Positions 1 through 35,565 of a stretch of DNA of 36,116 nt are shown piece after piece. Source of the DNA: an uncultured Dehalococcoidales bacterium (GTDB lineage Bacteria > Chloroflexota > Dehalococcoidia > Dehalococcoidales > UBA5627); NCBI GenBank assembly GCA_964549815.1, contig CAZJVO010000002.1, positions 1 to 36,116 of the forward strand. Reading direction: 5' to 3'. A model generated the notes under the pieces. The model worked only from the letters and a program-made list of their open reading frames with translations, ran no database searches and had not been told where the DNA came from. The position numbers were made by a program, and so were the translations under genes. How positions within the stretch are numbered: position 1 is the stretch's first letter; every line of letters begins with the position of its first letter.

Positions 1-1190
1 CGGAACCCACTCCGGTTGTAAGCTATGGGGTGGTGGACAAACAAGCAGGTGGAGCAATCGTAATTACCGCCAGCCACAACCCCGCTAAATGGAATGGCTT
101 TAAGGTTAAATCGAAGGACGGCGCCAGCGCTCCTGAAGAGGTGATATTTGAAATCGAGAAAAACATAGCAGGTCTCATCGAAACCGGAAGAATAAACCGC
201 CTTCCGCTTGACGATGCTATCGACAGGGGGCTGGTGGAATACACCGACCTGTATCCTGCCTATGAAGTTCAAATCGCAAGACTGGTTGATTTAGACGGCA
301 TTAAGAAAGCCAAACTGAAAATCGCCGTCGATTCGATGCATGGGGCAGGTGCCGGATACTTCAAAGCCCTGCTGAAAGACACCGGCTTCGAGATTATAGA
401 AATCAACGACCAGCCTAACCCTGCATTTCCAGGTATGAAACAGCCTGAGCCAATTGCTGTCAACCTTACCAGACTTTCAGAGCTGGTAAAAGCAAAAAGA
501 GCCGACGTAGGGCTGGCAACCGACGGTGATGCCGACCGAATCGGTGTTATGGATGAAAACGGCAATTTTTTGACCCAATTACAGGTGTACGCCCTCCTGG
601 CGCTATACCTGCTCGATGTCAGGAAGCAGCGCGGAGCCATCGTCAAGACAATCACGACCACCGGCATGCTGGATAAACTCGGAAAGATATATGACGTCCC
701 CGTTTACGAGACGAAGGTCGGTTTTAAATACGTGGCACCTTTAATGCTGCAACACGATGCCCTTATCGGCGGAGAGGAGAGCGGGGGATATGGCTTGAGA
801 GGGCATATCCCCGAGCGCGATGCCCTGCTGGCAGGGCTGTGTTTTATCGATTTCATGGTAAAAACAGGGAAAAAGCCTTCAGAGTTGCTGAAGGATTTAT
901 ATGATAAAGTCGGAGAGCACTACTACGACAGGCTGGATATAGAGTTTCCTGAAAATCAGAGGGCAAGCATCATCAGCCGCATCAAAAACAGCCATCCGAA
1001 AACTATAGATAACGTCAGTGTGGTAAAAGAAGATACCATCGACGGGTTCAGGTATACTTTATCGGATGGGTCATGGCTGTTGATCCGTTTTTCGGGGACG
1101 GAGCCGCTGCTGCGAATCTATACTGAAAGCCACAGCATGGATATGGTCAAAAGACTGCTGGAAATCGGCAAAAAAATAACCGGAGTTTGA
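1..1190 (+). CDS. phosphoglucomutase/phosphomannomutase family protein (alpha-D-phosphohexomutase), N-terminus cut by the window edge
   Basis: ORF 30..1190 stays open to the window edge. Visible motifs: catalytic Ser loop TASHNP, metal loop DGDADR, sugar loop GEESGG, phosphate loop RFSGTEP. Confidence 0.9.
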   Translation, partial: EPTPVVSYGVVDKQAGGAIVITASHNPAKWNGFKVKSKDGASAPEEVIFEIEKNIAGLIETGRINRLPLDDAIDRGLVEYTDLYPAYEVQIARLVDLDGIKKAKLKIAVDSMHGAGAGYFKALLKDTGFEIIEINDQPNPAFPGMKQPEPIAVNLTRLSELVKAKRADVGLATDGDADRIGVMDENGNFLTQLQVYALLALYLLDVRKQRGAIVKTITTTGMLDKLGKIYDVPVYETKVGFKYVAPLMLQHDALIGGEESGGYGLRGHIPERDALLAGLCFIDFMVKTGKKPSELLKDLYDKVGEHYYDRLDIEFPENQRASIISRIKNSHPKTIDNVSVVKEDTIDGFRYTLSDGSWLLIRFSGTEPLLRIYTESHSMDMVKRLLEIGKKITGV

Positions 1191-1194
1191 TTAT

Positions 1195-2262
1195 ATGATA
1201 GATTTAGACGACCCCAGTGTATACAGCAAATATGACCTTGAAAAAATGCTCAATCACCTCAATAATTTCCACGAGCTCTGCCGTGAGGCATGGCGAAAAG
1301 CGATGCTGCTGGAGATTCCTGCCGATTATGCCGATGTCGACAGGGTAATGATTCTGGGGATGGGAGGGTCTGCTATTGGCGGAGACCTTATCTCACGGCT
1401 GACTTTAAATGAGTCTGAGATTCCCATCACTGTAAACCGCAGTTATGACCTGCCGGCATACGTCGATGAAAGAACGCTTTTGATTGCCTGCAGCTATTCG
1501 GGGTACACCGAAGAGACGCTCTCTGCCCTTGGGCAGGGATTAAATATAAACGCAAAATGCATGGTGATTTCGACAGGGGGGAGACTCAAAGAGATTGCCG
1601 AAGAACGACACCTCCCTTTATTTACATTCGACTATAATGCCCAGCCCCGCGCCACCCTCCCGTTCAGCTTCATGGCCGAATTCTGCACTCTGCAGAAACT
1701 GGGAATCATAGGCGATAAATCGGCAGACATAGCGGAAACAATAAAGATTCTGGAGCAGCTCTCAGAACAACTGGATATCACGATTCCGATAGAGAACAAT
1801 CAGGCTAAACAGATGGCACAAAAACTCTACGGCAAGTTTATTTTCATCTATGGGTCGGAGATAACCACCGAAGTGGCTTACCGGTGGAAGACTCAGTTCA
1901 ACGAAAACAGCAAGAACTGGGCAGCCTGCGAAGCCTTCTCCGAGCTGAACCATAATACCATCGTCGGCTATCAATTCCCGCCAGATTTTATAAATAACGC
2001 CCTGATTATACTCCTGCGCTCCACCCTTTTATCGGAACCGATTCTGAAGCGATATCAGGCTACCTGCCGTATACTGGAACACAGTAAAATCAAGCACAGC
2101 ATAATAGATATCGGCGGAGAGAGTGCGCTGGCACAGATGTTGAGCCTGGTGCTACTGGGAGATTATATCAGCTATTACCTGGCTATCTTAAACGAAGTAG
2201 ACCCGACACCCATCGAGACCATCGATAAACTGAAGCGCGAGCTCAGAAAAAACCAACCCTGA
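1195..2262 (+). CDS. bifunctional phosphoglucose/phosphomannose isomerase (SIS-domain PGI/PMI family)
   Basis: 355-aa ORF starting 5 nt after the mutase stop. SIS-type nucleotide/sugar-phosphate loop MILGMGGSAIGGDL; length and layout fit the archaeal/bacterial PGI-PMI family. Confidence 0.8.
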   Translation: MIDLDDPSVYSKYDLEKMLNHLNNFHELCREAWRKAMLLEIPADYADVDRVMILGMGGSAIGGDLISRLTLNESEIPITVNRSYDLPAYVDERTLLIACSYSGYTEETLSALGQGLNINAKCMVISTGGRLKEIAEERHLPLFTFDYNAQPRATLPFSFMAEFCTLQKLGIIGDKSADIAETIKILEQLSEQLDITIPIENNQAKQMAQKLYGKFIFIYGSEITTEVAYRWKTQFNENSKNWAACEAFSELNHNTIVGYQFPPDFINNALIILLRSTLLSEPILKRYQATCRILEHSKIKHSIIDIGGESALAQMLSLVLLGDYISYYLAILNEVDPTPIETIDKLKRELRKNQP

Positions 2263-2265
2263 TCG

Positions 2266-2292
2266 TCATTTCTACCTTTGCAAAACGTAGGG
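2266..2292 (+). repeat. partial copy of repeat family R2 (gtcatttct.cctttgcaaa...)
   Basis: Matches the 5' part of the R2 copies at 35598-35642 (+) and 32262-32304 (inverted). It begins 4 nt after the isomerase stop. Confidence 0.5.
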
Positions 2293-2310
2293 GCGACCAA
2301 TGGTCGCCCG
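2292..2310 (+). terminator. GC-rich hairpin downstream of the isomerase gene (no U-tract)
   Basis: gggcgacca / tggtcgccc is a near-perfect palindrome 30 nt after the stop codon. It is followed by gcccttatacg rather than a T-run, so this is not a classical intrinsic terminator. Confidence 0.25.
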
Positions 2311-2354
2311 CCCTTATACGTATATAGCGGCATCAAAAAGACAATTATCGTGGC

Positions 2355-2393
2355 AAATCCCCTTTGATTCCCCTTTTCCAAAGTGGAAGAATA
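2355..2393 (+). repeat. repeat family R1 core, copy 1 (caaatcccctttgattccccttttccaaagtggaagaat)
   Basis: Nearly identical 39-mers at 33888-33926 and 35477-35515; an inverted diverged copy lies at 32384-32424. Contains an imperfect hairpin (attcccctt / aagtggaagaat). Confidence 0.85.
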
Positions 2394-2458
2394 TGCTCAT
2401 CTTCAATCGAAGAGAATATTTTGTTTTTATCAATTATAGTGCTATGGATTGCAAATTG

Positions 2459-2507
2459 ACGCCGCTATGGTTTCCCGATGCATCGGGACTCACCACAAAC
2501 GGCTTTT
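2459..2507 (+). repeat. repeat family R3 copy (gacgccgctatggtttcccgatgcatcgggactc...aaacggcttt)
   Basis: The reverse complement aligns with 32190-32242. The internal palindrome cccgatgcatcggg is matched there by cccgacaagtcggg. Confidence 0.7.
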
Positions 2508-2604
2508 ATTAAGGGACTCACGATGTTTGCATTTCCATGCTTAAATTAATATTCATTACATGAGGTGGCTGAAATATTACTAATATCTGATGATATTAAT
2601 ATAA

Positions 2605-2635
2605 ACACGAGAAAAATACGAAATATAATTCGTGT
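2605..2635 (-). terminator. weak hairpin directly after the small-peptide gene
   Basis: acacga (2605-2610) pairs with tcgtgt (2630-2635), immediately 3' of the TAG at 2636-2638 on the minus strand. It is followed by a U/A-rich stretch. The stem is short. Confidence 0.25.
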
Positions 2636-2770
2636 CTAAGTACCTCTATTAAGTCTTTTTGCTAATCCTGGTCCTTTTATATCTTTACGTATTTTTCTCG
2701 CTGAAGTTCCCCCTGCAAGCCTTTTCCCAATTCCAGGCCCAGTAATGTCTTTTCTAATTTTTCTTGCCAT
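2636..2770 (-). CDS. 44-aa tandem-repeat cationic peptide MARKIRKDITGPGIGKRLAGGTSARKIRKDIKGPGLAKRLNRGT (unknown function)
   Basis: Hand-translated and below the ORF-track cutoff. GGAGGA lies 6 nt upstream of the ATG (ggaggatactaaATG). The two ~20-aa repeats are conserved at protein level but differ by synonymous codons (ATT/ATA, AGA/CGT, GAC/GAT, GGG/GGA, CCT/CCA, AGG/AGA). Confidence 0.6.
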   Translation of the reverse strand: MARKIRKDITGPGIGKRLAGGTSARKIRKDIKGPGLAKRLNRGT

Positions 2771-2902
2771 TTAGTATCCTCCTAAGATATTACCAAATCA
2801 AAGACATGGCACAAGGACATTTATTATTCAATACTTTACGATATTAAAAATTTAAGGAAATCAGGCTTATTCTTTCTACTCATAACTAATAATTAAATCG
2901 TT

Positions 2903-3052
2903 TTATTTTGGTAAATGCCTTATCTTTCTAATGGTCTCTTTCTCATAAGAAGATATTTTATTACACTTATTAATATGATTTTGTAATCCACGATTAGTAA
3001 AAAATCCTCCACACACTGGGCAAGGAACATTTTTTGGAGTTAGTCTGGTCAT
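2903..3052 (-). CDS. 49-aa C2HC zinc-finger microprotein MTRLTPKNVPCPVCGGFFTNRGLQNHINKCNKISSYEKETIRKIRHLPK
   Basis: Hand-translated and below the ORF-track cutoff. G-rich SD-like ggggggtattatATG. Motif C-x2-C-x11-H-x3-C with F/L core residues. Starts 32 nt after the CAP gene stop on the same strand. Confidence 0.55.
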   Translation of the reverse strand: MTRLTPKNVPCPVCGGFFTNRGLQNHINKCNKISSYEKETIRKIRHLPK

Positions 3053-3084
3053 ATAATACCCCCCTTAAAACATCTGTAATAAAA

Positions 3085-3540
3085 TTAATCCGCAATGAAA
3101 GTAGCATATCCTCGACTTATGTTATAGGTAATTGTCCAATTACCTATTTGGATATTACTTAATTTAAATCCTATACCAATAGCACCCCTCGTGTATTGAC
3201 TACTCATATAATTAGCATGGTGCATTGAACTATTCTTCCATAGCTCATATAACTCTTGACTGCTACCAACCCCACCCATTGCAATATTTTCGCCATATCC
3301 CATATTTGAATGTACAAGCTTATCTATAGTAGCCATATAGATACTATACTCCTTTGCTTGATTTGCCATATTATCATCCCAAATTAATGGTGGTCTACCT
3401 TGGTTTATTCGTTCACTATTAATCAAATCAAAGGTACCTTTTGCTATATCATCTGAATTATAATACTGATTTACAGTAAATGTAGTAAATATCATCCATA
3501 ATGATATAAAAAGAAGAATTGCACCAACTAATTTCATCAT
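3085..3540 (-). CDS. CAP/SCP/PR-1-like (YkwD-type) domain protein with N-terminal signal/anchor helix
   Basis: 151-aa ORF. Hydrophobic N-terminus LVGAILLFISLWMIFTTF, then CAP-like blocks (INSERINQGRPPLIWDD, HSNMGYGENIA, LWKNSSMHHANYMS, GIG). AT-rich codon usage unlike the neighbouring genes. Confidence 0.75.
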   Translation of the reverse strand: MMKLVGAILLFISLWMIFTTFTVNQYYNSDDIAKGTFDLINSERINQGRPPLIWDDNMANQAKEYSIYMATIDKLVHSNMGYGENIAMGGVGSSQELYELWKNSSMHHANYMSSQYTRGAIGIGFKLSNIQIGNWTITYNISRGYATFIAD

Positions 3541-3555
3541 AACTTTTATATAAAA

Positions 3556-3583
3556 ATTATACTCGTGTATGTTTTCATGTCAA
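3556..3583 (-). promoter_or_regulatory. near-consensus sigma70-type promoter for the AT-rich islet genes
   Basis: The minus strand reads TTGACA (3583-3578), a 16-nt spacer, then TATAAT (3561-3556). The -10 ends 15 nt before the CAP ATG at 3540 and no SD lies in between. Confidence 0.5.
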
Positions 3584-3645
3584 TACATATACGATAAATT
3601 TGAAGATAATTTTTTCATATCGTGTTTAAAAGGCAATTTTTAGTT

Positions 3646-3684
3646 AAAAACAAAAAAGGCCGCAAAGCCGGTAGCCTTGCAGCC
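3646..3684 (-). terminator. rho-independent terminator after rpsI
   Basis: The minus strand reads ggctgcaagg-ctaccgg-ctttgcggcc (10-bp stem with 2 G-U pairs) followed by ttttttgttttt. It begins 34 nt after the rpsI stop. Confidence 0.8.
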
Positions 3685-3717
3685 TTCTCTCTTCCATATA
3701 AAATCGCAGGATGTATA

Positions 3718-4125
3718 TTAACGCTTTGTATATTGAGGCGCCTTGCGAGCACGCTTAAGACCAGGCTTCTTCCTCTCCTTGGCACGCGAATCACGCGTGA
3801 GGAGGCCATCCCCTCTTAAAGCCGCCTTATACTTCTCGTCTTCCTTTAACAGAGCACGCGAAATGCCCATCGAGATTGCTTCAGCCTGTCCGGATATACC
3901 ACCGCCATTTACCTTGACAGAGATATCGAATTTTCCCATGGTCTGGGTAACAATCAGCGGTTTCACGATAGCCTGCCGATGTTCCAAACAGTCAAACCGC
4001 TCTTCGTATGGCATACCATTGATTATAATTTCTCCGCTCCCAGGTGCCAGCCTTACCTGAGCAACAGCTGTTTTACGCCTGCCTGTTCCCTGCGAATAAG
4101 TCTTCTTTTTCAAAGCTCCCCTCAC
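3718..4125 (-). CDS. rpsI: 30S ribosomal protein S9
   Basis: GTGRRKTAVAQVRL...PQYTKR are signature S9 termini. Follows rplM. GTG start as in the ORF track; the exact start is uncertain. Confidence 0.95.
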   Translation of the reverse strand: MRGALKKKTYSQGTGRRKTAVAQVRLAPGSGEIIINGMPYEERFDCLEHRQAIVKPLIVTQTMGKFDISVKVNGGGISGQAEAISMGISRALLKEDEKYKAALRGDGLLTRDSRAKERKKPGLKRARKAPQYTKR

Positions 4126-33771: not shown

Positions 33772-33887
33772 TATTTAAATCCTCCTTATCGAATTTATAC
33801 ACATTATTATATATAAGGATGGATACCGATGATAGAACTTTTATCACATTGAGGATTTAGGTAGCTAAAACAGAGAAATAATCGTTG

Positions 33888-33926
33888 CAAATCCCCTTTG
33901 ATTCCCCTTTTCCAAAGCGGAAGAAT
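33888..33926 (+). repeat. repeat family R1 core, copy 2
   Basis: caaatcccctttgattccccttttccaaagcggaagaat differs by one base from 2355-2393. Confidence 0.85.
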
Positions 33927-34014
33927 AAGTTGGGTAAGTTTGCCGTTCTGGAGGGAGTACATTCGCTTCGCTCAGTATAAACTTCACGAACGAAGAATCC
34001 GTGGGATAAGGGAC

Positions 34015-35476: not shown

Positions 35477-35565
35477 CAAATCCCCTTTGATTCCCCTTTC
35501 CCAAAGTGGAAGAATCCGTCATGTATTAAACGTAAAGAAGACTATCAAATTATTCGCAAGGCAAT
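35477..35565 (+). repeat. repeat family R1 (long form), copy 3
   Basis: The core is identical in pattern to 2355-2393 and 33888-33926. The extension (..attaaacgtaaag..) matches inverted 32341-32383. Confidence 0.8.

Follow-up and report, generated by a model that had tools for sequence, protein, structure and literature searches.

Among described mobile elements, the closest to the locus reported here are the ssrA genomic islands (ssrA-GIs) of Dehalococcoides. These islands carry a large serine recombinase, DsiB, of ~540 amino acids (aa), whose reading frame runs over the end of the target; they have a direct repeat of ~20 bp, occur in tandem arrays and as decayed copies, and bring strain-specific cargo (McMurdie et al. 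2011, PMC3146451). Here we describe a short AT-rich islet in an uncultured Dehalococcoidales bacterium (GTDB lineage Dehalococcoidia; Dehalococcoidales; UBA5627). The stretch analysed, hereafter the window, comprises 36,116 nt (CAZJVO010000002.1, assembly GCA_964549815.1) and is contig C2 of a 1.41-Mb metagenome-assembled genome (MAG; 124 contigs, 91% complete); all coordinates are window positions unless a contig is named. We propose that positions 2522-3645, in the spacer between the isomerase gene pgi and rpsI, are the eroded, recombinase-less cargo end of an integrative mobilisable element of a type that carries a large serine recombinase and targets dnaN, left at a secondary site, and we give this reading a probability of about 0.7. 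G000 denotes the source genome, G001-G011 the 11 other species of its genus (12 genus genomes in all), C followed by a number a contig, and L followed by a number a fetched locus or contig, mostly metagenomic (L075 is part of G004:C16; L017 is G009:C156). From left to right, the islet and its junction consist of the following features.

2461 to 2521, plus strand: host-side arm of the junction; a copy of a dispersed repeat, "U" (GCCGYTATGGTT...CTCACCACRAACGGC), then cttttattaagggaCTCAC
2522 to 2540, plus strand: L motif GATGTTTGCATTTCCATGC, left edge of the islet, one mismatch from its consensus
2560 to 2635, minus strand: two hairpins after the pep44 stop codon, with a U-rich run behind the first (-17.2 kcal/mol; z = -3.7 against shuffled sequences)
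2636 to 2770, minus strand: pep44, a basic microprotein of 44 aa with two ARKIRKDIxGPGxxKRL repeats and a GGAGGA Shine-Dalgarno sequence
2790 to 2809, minus strand: degenerate string ccatgtctttgatttggtaa resembling the core at the 3' end of dnaN (about PMSLIW-stop), a weak match 20 nt upstream of the pep44 ATG
2903 to 3052, minus strand: zf49, a stand-alone zinc finger of 49 aa with a predicted beta-beta-alpha fold and a basic C-terminal helix (C11-x2-C14-x11-H26-x3-C30)
3085 to 3540, minus strand: CAP/PR-1-like protein of 151 aa (Pfam PF00188)
3583 to 3556, minus strand: sigma-70 promoter TTGACA-16-TATAAT, 12 of 12 consensus positions, ending 15 nt before the CAP ATG

The islet is foreign to the genome that carries it. 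Positions 2541-3645 have 30.1% G+C against 45.6% for the 1.4-Mb genome, which corresponds to z = -4.1 relative to 1105-nt genome windows (mean 45.7%, standard deviation 3.7), only 0.12% of which are equally low; the tetranucleotide distance stands at z = 6.6. G+C at third codon positions is 0.18-0.24 in the three islet genes versus 0.47-0.58 in pgm, pgi, rpsI, rplM and truA. An earlier note made from the sequence alone had described an AT-rich islet with abrupt edges, and these contrasts bear it out. The left edge is sharp at 2540/2541, where the match of the window both to an insert in G001 and to contig L025 ends, and on the right the islet stops at the A-tract that belongs to the rpsI terminator (~3645). 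Because the locus is reproduced in independent metagenome contigs, with 100% identity to window positions 2237-4106 in L076 and with the gene trio at 91-95% identity, again adjoining the rpsI terminator, in L025, the islet is no assembly artefact. Low-GC islets are common in G000, which has ~33 stretches of 1-2.5 kb below 36% G+C. Examples of low-GC stretches are C15:9990-11290, C6:1-1126, C79:713-2300, C115:1599-2236, C40:1001-3500 and C70:5251-7250; five of the ~33 begin with an L motif, each time with different cargo, and ORFs (open reading frames) of 350, 308 and 427 aa in the L-motif islets of G000 have no Pfam matches.

All three islet genes are real and under purifying selection. The ratio of non-synonymous to synonymous substitution rates (dN/dS) against homologues is 0.12 for zf49, 0.23 for pep44 and 0.18 for CAP, the last value leaving out the pair of window and L025, in which an indel shifts the ungapped alignment. 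The ribosome-binding sites of zf49 and pep44 are G-rich or GGAGGA. With the ORF list and the homologues, these ratios uphold the three co-oriented genes that the note had placed here, and its near-consensus promoter proves to be a perfect one. At the other end of the trio, the hairpins at 2560-2635 are probably an intrinsic terminator; a simple terminator scan did not pick them up.

Neither the islet DNA nor any of the three proteins occurs in the 11 other species of the genus, and a comparison with 362 further genomes of the order gave no close homologue of the CAP protein. The pgi-rpsI spacer is empty in G004 (494 nt) and G008 (682 nt), both at 45% G+C, and likewise uninterrupted in G011; in G007 it holds two ABC-transporter genes, and the junction seen in the window is occupied in G001 by 1.1 kb of unrelated, AT-rich DNA that includes an ORF of 239 aa. 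Synteny from the isomerase gene to rpsI thus varies among the sister species, all of which lack the islet, and the note's view of a recently acquired cassette stands on this absence, on the empty spacers of G004 and G008 and on the unrelated insert of G001. In G009, DNA of 29-32% G+C beyond the rpsI terminator (L017:1-395, G009:C156) is unrelated to the window islet and reaches the contig end; it is a third kind of insert at the site. An ancestral region lost in the relatives, its AT-richness arising from local mutation bias or from selection on small secreted proteins, would agree with the purifying selection on the genes and with a homologue of the CAP-module promoter kept at the dxr locus of G000. 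It is contradicted by synteny and composition: the region is absent from the 11 congeners and the order, the empty sites have intact spacers, the cargo at the G001 junction is unrelated, and CAP is low in G+C in a richer host as well, the 70%-identity CAP gene of L022 having 32-34% G+C in an islet of 30-38% and a host of 52-56%. We consider an ancestral origin extremely improbable.

The left edge, positions 2522-2540, is the conserved end shared by a family of integrative elements with a serine recombinase. The L motif occurs in 16 copies in seven of the 12 genus genomes (a reversed-pattern control gave 0 hits), five of them in G000 including that of the window, where AT-rich DNA always lies on the same side. 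In 15 of the 16 copies the 600 nt on the 3' side have 26-41% G+C, compared with 42-51% upstream, and only 14% of 600-nt windows of G000 are at or below 41%; the cargo differs at each copy. Most copies in the genus follow the first half of the dispersed repeat GCCGTTATGGTTCGACARGCTCAC, which in islet-free repeats continues as CACGAACGGC. In the window and in G001 the motif comes after ...gggaCTCAC, ~18 nt past such a repeat, and the orthologous, insert-free spacer of G011 reads ...cggcttaactgaCCTCAC directly followed by acttgtcagc (continuing as ...gaCCTCAC, then acttgtcagc).

What the motif terminates can be seen in intact elements, G004:C16 and L029, where it forms the cargo end beside a duplicated dnaN core. 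Intact members of the family are AT-rich, 5-9 kb long and comprise the L motif, variable cargo that often includes pep44, geneX, p78, a Rep_trans-like gene, p123 and a large serine recombinase gene; usually they are inserted just past the last dnaN codons, with ~20 nt of the dnaN end duplicated. The G004 element is complete on one contig, with L motif (L075:1468), a 133-aa cargo gene, geneX, p78, Rep and recombinase. It ends at the dnaN stop codon and is flanked by a direct repeat of 19-20 nt (cccactgtacgaacatggg / cccactggacaaacattgg) corresponding to the dnaN codons PMFVQW, one copy lying directly before the L motif. G000 itself holds an element core at C26:1-4875 (30-40% G+C), with geneX (298 aa), p78, a 402-aa protein with a weak Rep_trans match (E = 0.001), p123 and a 504-aa large serine recombinase (Pfam Resolvase 5.6e-31, Recombinase 4.3e-28, Zn_ribbon_recom 3.4e-13); its Rep is 83% and its recombinase 64% identical to those of G004:C16. 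A literature search found no publication on dnaN-targeting integrative elements with a serine recombinase.

Recombinases of the family number only two in the 12 genus genomes, against 16 L motifs, so most L-motif islets are recombinase-less remnants. Decay is also recorded in geneX, of which 5' fragments of 31-55 codons are left in the C15 islet, the G001 islet and several metagenome loci. Two islets share another conserved block at their far side ("R motif" CATGAAAAGCAAG...); considered as the right-hand inverted repeat of a transposon-like element, it proved to be the first 30-55 codons of geneX. Three other identities for the junction sequences were rejected: the L motif as a promoter or terminator, given its varying orientation to the cargo genes and the lack of a hairpin; the U repeat as a tRNA or tmRNA fragment, suggested by a GGTTCGA string, for which we found no pairable T-arm and nothing relevant in Rfam; and the U/L sites as integron attC sites, since no RYYYAAC/GTTRRRY pairs could be read by eye. 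Joining the start of C6 (L motif and cargo) to the start of C26 (core) was also tried and dropped for want of an overlap.

The islet might alternatively have arrived by ordinary homologous recombination between its flanks, for instance once DNA of a related strain had been taken up; the L motif would then be just one more dispersed intergenic repeat, with no tie to a recombinase. The spacer is indeed full of such repeats, only five of the ~33 low-GC islets have the motif, and no recombinase gene lies beside the islet of the window. Against this, the L motif is one-sided with respect to AT-rich DNA in 15 of its 16 copies, lies exactly at the cargo end of intact elements beside the duplicated dnaN core, and keeps a constant orientation to pep44 in 23 of 23 hits from unrelated metagenome lineages. 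This origin therefore appears decidedly improbable.

Several further observations concern the family. In G000, dnaN (C70:5529-7499) ends in ...VVMPMFVQWD* and is directly followed, up to the contig end, by a stretch of 26-35% G+C, as expected for the primary landing site of the family. In the intact element of L029 (L029:5344-8583, JGI Ga0136851_10000029), the interval from pep44 to the L motif encodes an ATPase (AAA_13) and a Lit-like protein (Peptidase_U49), a pair that is a candidate anti-phage system, and an HNH protein is encoded just upstream of its pep44. Directly upstream of the intact G004 element lies a second AT-rich remnant (L075:1-1100, G004:C16:13000-14100; 24-31% G+C) with a 203-aa ORF and a 21-codon fragment of a recombinase N-terminus, which suggests a tandem element array.

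The gene next to the L motif, pep44, is a recurring gene of this element family. It has 72 homologous clusters of 41-48 aa in which the double repeat, ARKIRKDIxGPGLAKRL, is strongly conserved and positions R3, K4, I5, R6, D8, G13, R17, L18 and K26 are invariant; compared half with half, the window gene shows 10 synonymous and five non-synonymous differences. We surveyed 57 pep44 loci, 52 from a metagenome scan and five fetched before, not counting the window itself. A complete geneX or a 5' fragment of it is found in 13 of the 57, upstream of pep44 and in divergent orientation, and the full order recombinase, Rep, p78, geneX, pep44 is found in L029, L091 and L102. L-like motifs (at most 3 mismatches) occur at 14 other pep44 loci as well as in L076, the window's own locus, and all 23 L-like hits at pep44 loci, unrelated metagenome lineages included, are on the strand opposite pep44, as in the window. 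A copy of the dnaN 3' core stands no more than 1.5 kb downstream of pep44 in 17 of 58 loci, with the L motif directly before the core in 11 of these 17, and in nine loci a core copy stands 38-201 nt upstream, in several cases the end of dnaN itself. pep44 lies between two dnaN-core copies in L080, and between two complete sites of core plus L motif, in direct orientation and 330-349 nt apart, in four loci (L086:3399-3760, L097:1859-2226, L099:358-706 and L106:3921-4285). Between these bracketing sites there is also a conserved 110-nt 3' region that contains a hairpin.

The bracketed copies in these four loci and in L080 would fit an islet, or at least a 290-340-nt pep44 part of it, that is a still-mobile non-autonomous cassette, moved in trans by the recombinase of an intact element such as that of C26. 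G000 does hold an intact recombinase, and G000 and G001 share the junction with different cargo. The window, however, offers one good site only, the L motif, its inner core-like string being degenerate; neither a circular junction nor a polymorphic empty site was observed in the same population; and L076 is identical to the window, while L025 differs by extra DNA and not by precise excision. We regard continued mobility of this kind as unlikely. If the islet is an eroded element end, as we favour, the string at 2790-2809, compared by reading with true dnaN cores (CCNATGTTYGTNCARTGG), may mark the inner boundary of a pep44 mini-cassette: its position so close to the pep44 start suggests that L motif, pep44 and core may once have formed such a unit, with CAP and zf49 beyond it.

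As for its function, pep44 would most likely assist the element as a small protein that binds DNA, for example a regulator or a recombination directionality factor. This is the most economical guess because of its positive charge, the recombination sites adjacent to it and its divergence from the geneX operon. Its AlphaFold2 (AF2) model has four short helices (predicted local distance difference test score, pLDDT, 72), and a Foldseek search of the PDB returned nothing at E < 4 and no helix-hairpin-helix (HhH) proteins. We discarded an assignment to the HhH class, finding no Pfam HhH match at E <= 1 and no fold match, only a similar helix-GPG-helix pattern, and we likewise discarded pep44 as a core gene of the class, as none of 300 genomes of the class and none of the 11 from the genus has it. 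A bolder proposal, which we put forward tentatively and with the odds against it, is that pep44 and its recombination site form a minimal cassette of ~340 nt handled by the serine recombinase, the smallest self-contained unit of the dnaN-targeting family, and that pep44 represents a new kind of 44-aa DNA-binding factor controlling recombination or expression of the element, for instance as a directionality factor. Such a role, if true, would explain why pep44 is most often retained as the element decays.

The three genes are independent passengers and not one machine. The earlier note did not recognise their combination as a described system. A three-gene system acquired as a unit would suit their common orientation, their short gaps, the one consensus promoter, the terminator-like structure after the last gene only, and the recurrence of the trio in L025 and L076. 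These two contigs, however, both stem from the locus of the window, in a population that is that of G000 or very close to it, and they are the only two of the 57 other pep44 loci with CAP and zf49, which the remaining 55 lack. In related metagenome contigs (L018-L021), whose housekeeping proteins are 70-85% identical to those of G000, CAP and zf49 lie with a homologous promoter and without pep44 between dxr and cdsA. Since the CAP-zf49 pair occurs together only in the closest relatives, and there at a different locus, the trio is no dedicated system; more distant CAP homologues lack zf49, and pep44 occurs in many other contexts. The neighbourhood survey thus largely refutes a three-gene system, which we judge improbable. 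None of the three proteins has a PADLOC hit, so a defence system was rejected as well, and so was a phage origin, pep44 and zf49 being unmatched in 50,697 phage records and IMG/VR, with one weak hit for CAP only.

Two sequences are homologous to the islet promoter: the one that precedes the CAP-zf49 module at dxr in L019, and a remnant with which contig C91 of G000 ends. This remnant (C91:5229-5396), tatcgtataagtattgacattccgttgtataatt, lies downstream of dxr and is immediately followed by an apparent insertion sequence (IS) end at the contig edge; the start of another contig, C62:1-490, encodes an IS3-type OrfA. CAP and zf49 may once have been present at the dxr locus of G000, as they are in L018-L021. 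In L019 (L019:5117-5422; ENA ERZ3460579 NODE_3467) a 55-nt stretch occurs twice, once before and once after a dispersed repeat with an N run, probably reflecting population heterogeneity, with and without the repeat insertion, that was badly scaffolded.

The CAP protein matches PF00188 over residues 37-123 with 36.7 bits (cut-off 21.1; E = 8.8e-9), and its sequence matches in the PDB are P14a/PR-1 and Pry1. Residues H77, E84 and H107 are invariant and E96 nearly so among 10 homologues, and these would correspond to the canonical cavity tetrad. A hydrophobic helix read from the sequence at about residues 4-22 could serve as signal or anchor. Export or anchoring in the membrane is therefore probable for this protein, which would work at the cell surface, its CAP fold binding a ligand or lipid. 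It scores far below the cut-off of the YkwD subfamily TIGR02909 (33.4 bits against 171) and matches PHROG 16914, a "sporulation protein" of the moron category, at 1.2e-6. It resembles bacterial YkwD-like CAP/PR-1 proteins in its profile match, its conserved His and Glu residues and its N-terminal export or anchor helix, and differs from them in being short (151 aa), in lacking a Cys-rich region and in its sub-threshold TIGR02909 score. To our knowledge, no function has been established for a bacterial CAP protein. The sole lead found is a Rhodobacter YkwD mutant with an envelope/lipid phenotype (PMC5442454). zf49 is missing beside all of the more distant homologues: those at 78% and 70% identity have different neighbours, those at 55% identity stand alone, and one at 42% identity lies among small ORFs, one with a weak Phage_rep_org_N match. 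The 78% and 70% homologues (L022:3769-5009, L061, L062) are preceded by a gene for a 66-aa protein with two predicted membrane helices and followed by a convergent gene for a 161-aa zinc-ribbon and membrane protein, beside trpS; this CAP clade thus has another recurring partnership as well.

zf49 has homologues at 94% and 82% identity in which every metal ligand is invariant; of its core positions F17, F18 and L23, F17 and L23 are invariant in three homologues. Its AF2 model comprises two short strands and a helix (beta-beta-alpha) plus a further helix, with pLDDT ~80 in the finger. The top Foldseek matches are nearly all beta-beta-alpha fingers, with a root-mean-square deviation of 0.7-0.9 A in the closest five, every one of them at E > 1. 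The best PDB sequence matches are INSM1 ZF5 (2.8e-5) and the UBZ finger of RAD18 (0.065). Hidden Markov model searches divide: CAP lies above its Pfam threshold, whereas all zinc-finger scores of zf49 stay below gathering (zf-C2H2_4 18.5 against 27, zf-C2H2 15.7 against 25.2). A sub-threshold Pfam score is usual for a single zinc finger. A profile search of 1.8 billion representatives recovered mostly eukaryotic-looking multi-finger proteins and a handful of stand-alone relatives of 44-53 aa. zf49 would be a single zinc finger for nucleic acid or protein, co-transcribed with CAP. It shares spacing, an aromatic/Leu core and the predicted beta-beta-alpha fold with classical C2H2 and C2HC UBZ4 fingers (RAD18, WRNIP1, NEMO); unlike these eukaryote-type fingers it is a stand-alone bacterial protein of 49 aa with a basic C-terminal helix, and it is not of the Ros/MucR type.

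As we infer the order of events, an element copy would have inserted between pgi and rpsI, at a secondary site immediately behind a CTCAC that adjoins a dispersed U repeat; the part from geneX through the recombinase gene, and the far junction, would later have been lost, leaving the end motif, pep44 and a two-gene passenger module, CAP-zf49, with its own consensus promoter. Some of the evidence weighs against this account. Neither a recombinase gene nor a fragment of geneX lies in positions 2263-3717 of the window, nor can a far junction be recognised there, since on the right the islet simply ends at the rpsI terminator; given the missing recombinase, the window copy can only be a remnant or a non-autonomous derivative. 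The 20-nt dnaN core of canonical sites is absent at the window junction and from the rpsI side, and the string at 2790-2809 is a weak substitute. The CAP-zf49 loci L018-L021 and L022-L024 have no L motif within 4 mismatches. C26 begins 98 nt before geneX, so that its left, cargo-bearing end is off the contig and its own L motif is not seen. Finally, the action of the recombinase and a crossover at the sites formed by L motif and dnaN end are predictions from sequence.

The flanking host features are as follows.

3 to 1190, plus strand: pgm, host gene paired with pgi
1195 to 2262, plus strand: pgi-like gene for a bifunctional phosphoglucose/phosphomannose isomerase (Pfam bact-PGI_C, E = 6.9e-47), flanking host gene
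2281 to 2315: REP-like (repetitive extragenic palindrome) hairpin unit, a dispersed intergenic repeat found genus-wide, ~10 genome copies
2347 to 2393: second dispersed repeat unit, ~9 genome copies
3652 to 3690, minus strand: intrinsic terminator of rpsI, right edge of the islet, conserved in the genus
3718 to 4125, minus strand: rpsI, flanking host gene and last gene of a ribosomal protein gene run

The bact-PGI_C match confirms the sugar-phosphate isomerase that the note had named as left neighbour; pgi orthologues in G001, G004, G007 and G008 are 78-89% identical. Beyond rpsI follow rplM, truA, rplQ and rpoA, all on the minus strand. Copies of the 2347-2393 repeat unit at 33881-33927 and 35477-35515 flank a toxin-antitoxin cassette region behind the 23S rRNA gene, and no L motif was found at this hotspot.

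From an unexplained trio of genes, our analysis derives a specific and testable view of how the genomes of uncultured Dehalococcoidales change. Small elements with a serine recombinase would seed short AT-rich islets at dnaN and at secondary sites beside a dispersed repeat, and these islets would in time be reduced to remnants that lack the recombinase but keep passenger genes under selection. The 19-nt end motif could serve as a marker for such islets in fragmented MAGs. The mobile-element context also provides a first functional hypothesis for the widespread, unannotated pep44 family, and zf49, a bacterial stand-alone zinc finger of eukaryote type, is worth study.

An integron gene cassette consists of one ORF and an attC site and is moved by the tyrosine recombinase IntI. 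The pep44 unit is similar in having one short ORF and one recombination site within ~340 nt, sometimes between two direct sites; unlike integrons, it goes with a serine recombinase, no attC-type structure could be read, there is no attI/Pc platform, and the units have their own promoters. Staphylococcal cassette chromosome elements (SCC; CcrAB/CcrC) are likewise serine-recombinase islands at the 3' end of an essential gene, with variable cargo and recombinase-less remnants (a comparison also made in PMC3146451). They belong to another phylum, target orfX/rlmH and carry other cargo. The ssrA-GIs come closer. Both they and the dnaN-type family are mobilisable islands of Dehalococcoidia at the 3' end of a single-copy essential gene, and both have a direct repeat of ~20 bp, a recombinase of ~540 aa whose gene overlaps the end of the target, tandem and decayed copies, and strain-specific cargo. 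The targets differ: the ssrA-GIs use ssrA, the dnaN-type family the end of dnaN and, within this genus, also positions adjoining a dispersed repeat. So do the cores, with DsiB, DsiA, RecF-like, ParB and Mom proteins in the ssrA-GIs versus geneX, p78, a Rep_trans-like protein, p123 and the recombinase in the dnaN-type elements, which are also smaller (5-9 kb); nothing of this core is left in the window copy. For SCC and ssrA-GIs alike, the likeness is one of architecture. Because the ssrA islands of Dehalococcoides already represent this class of mechanism, the present work adds breadth and detail, not a new principle; new are the end motif, insertion at secondary sites that adjoin a dispersed repeat, and the link of the unannotated pep44 family to these elements.

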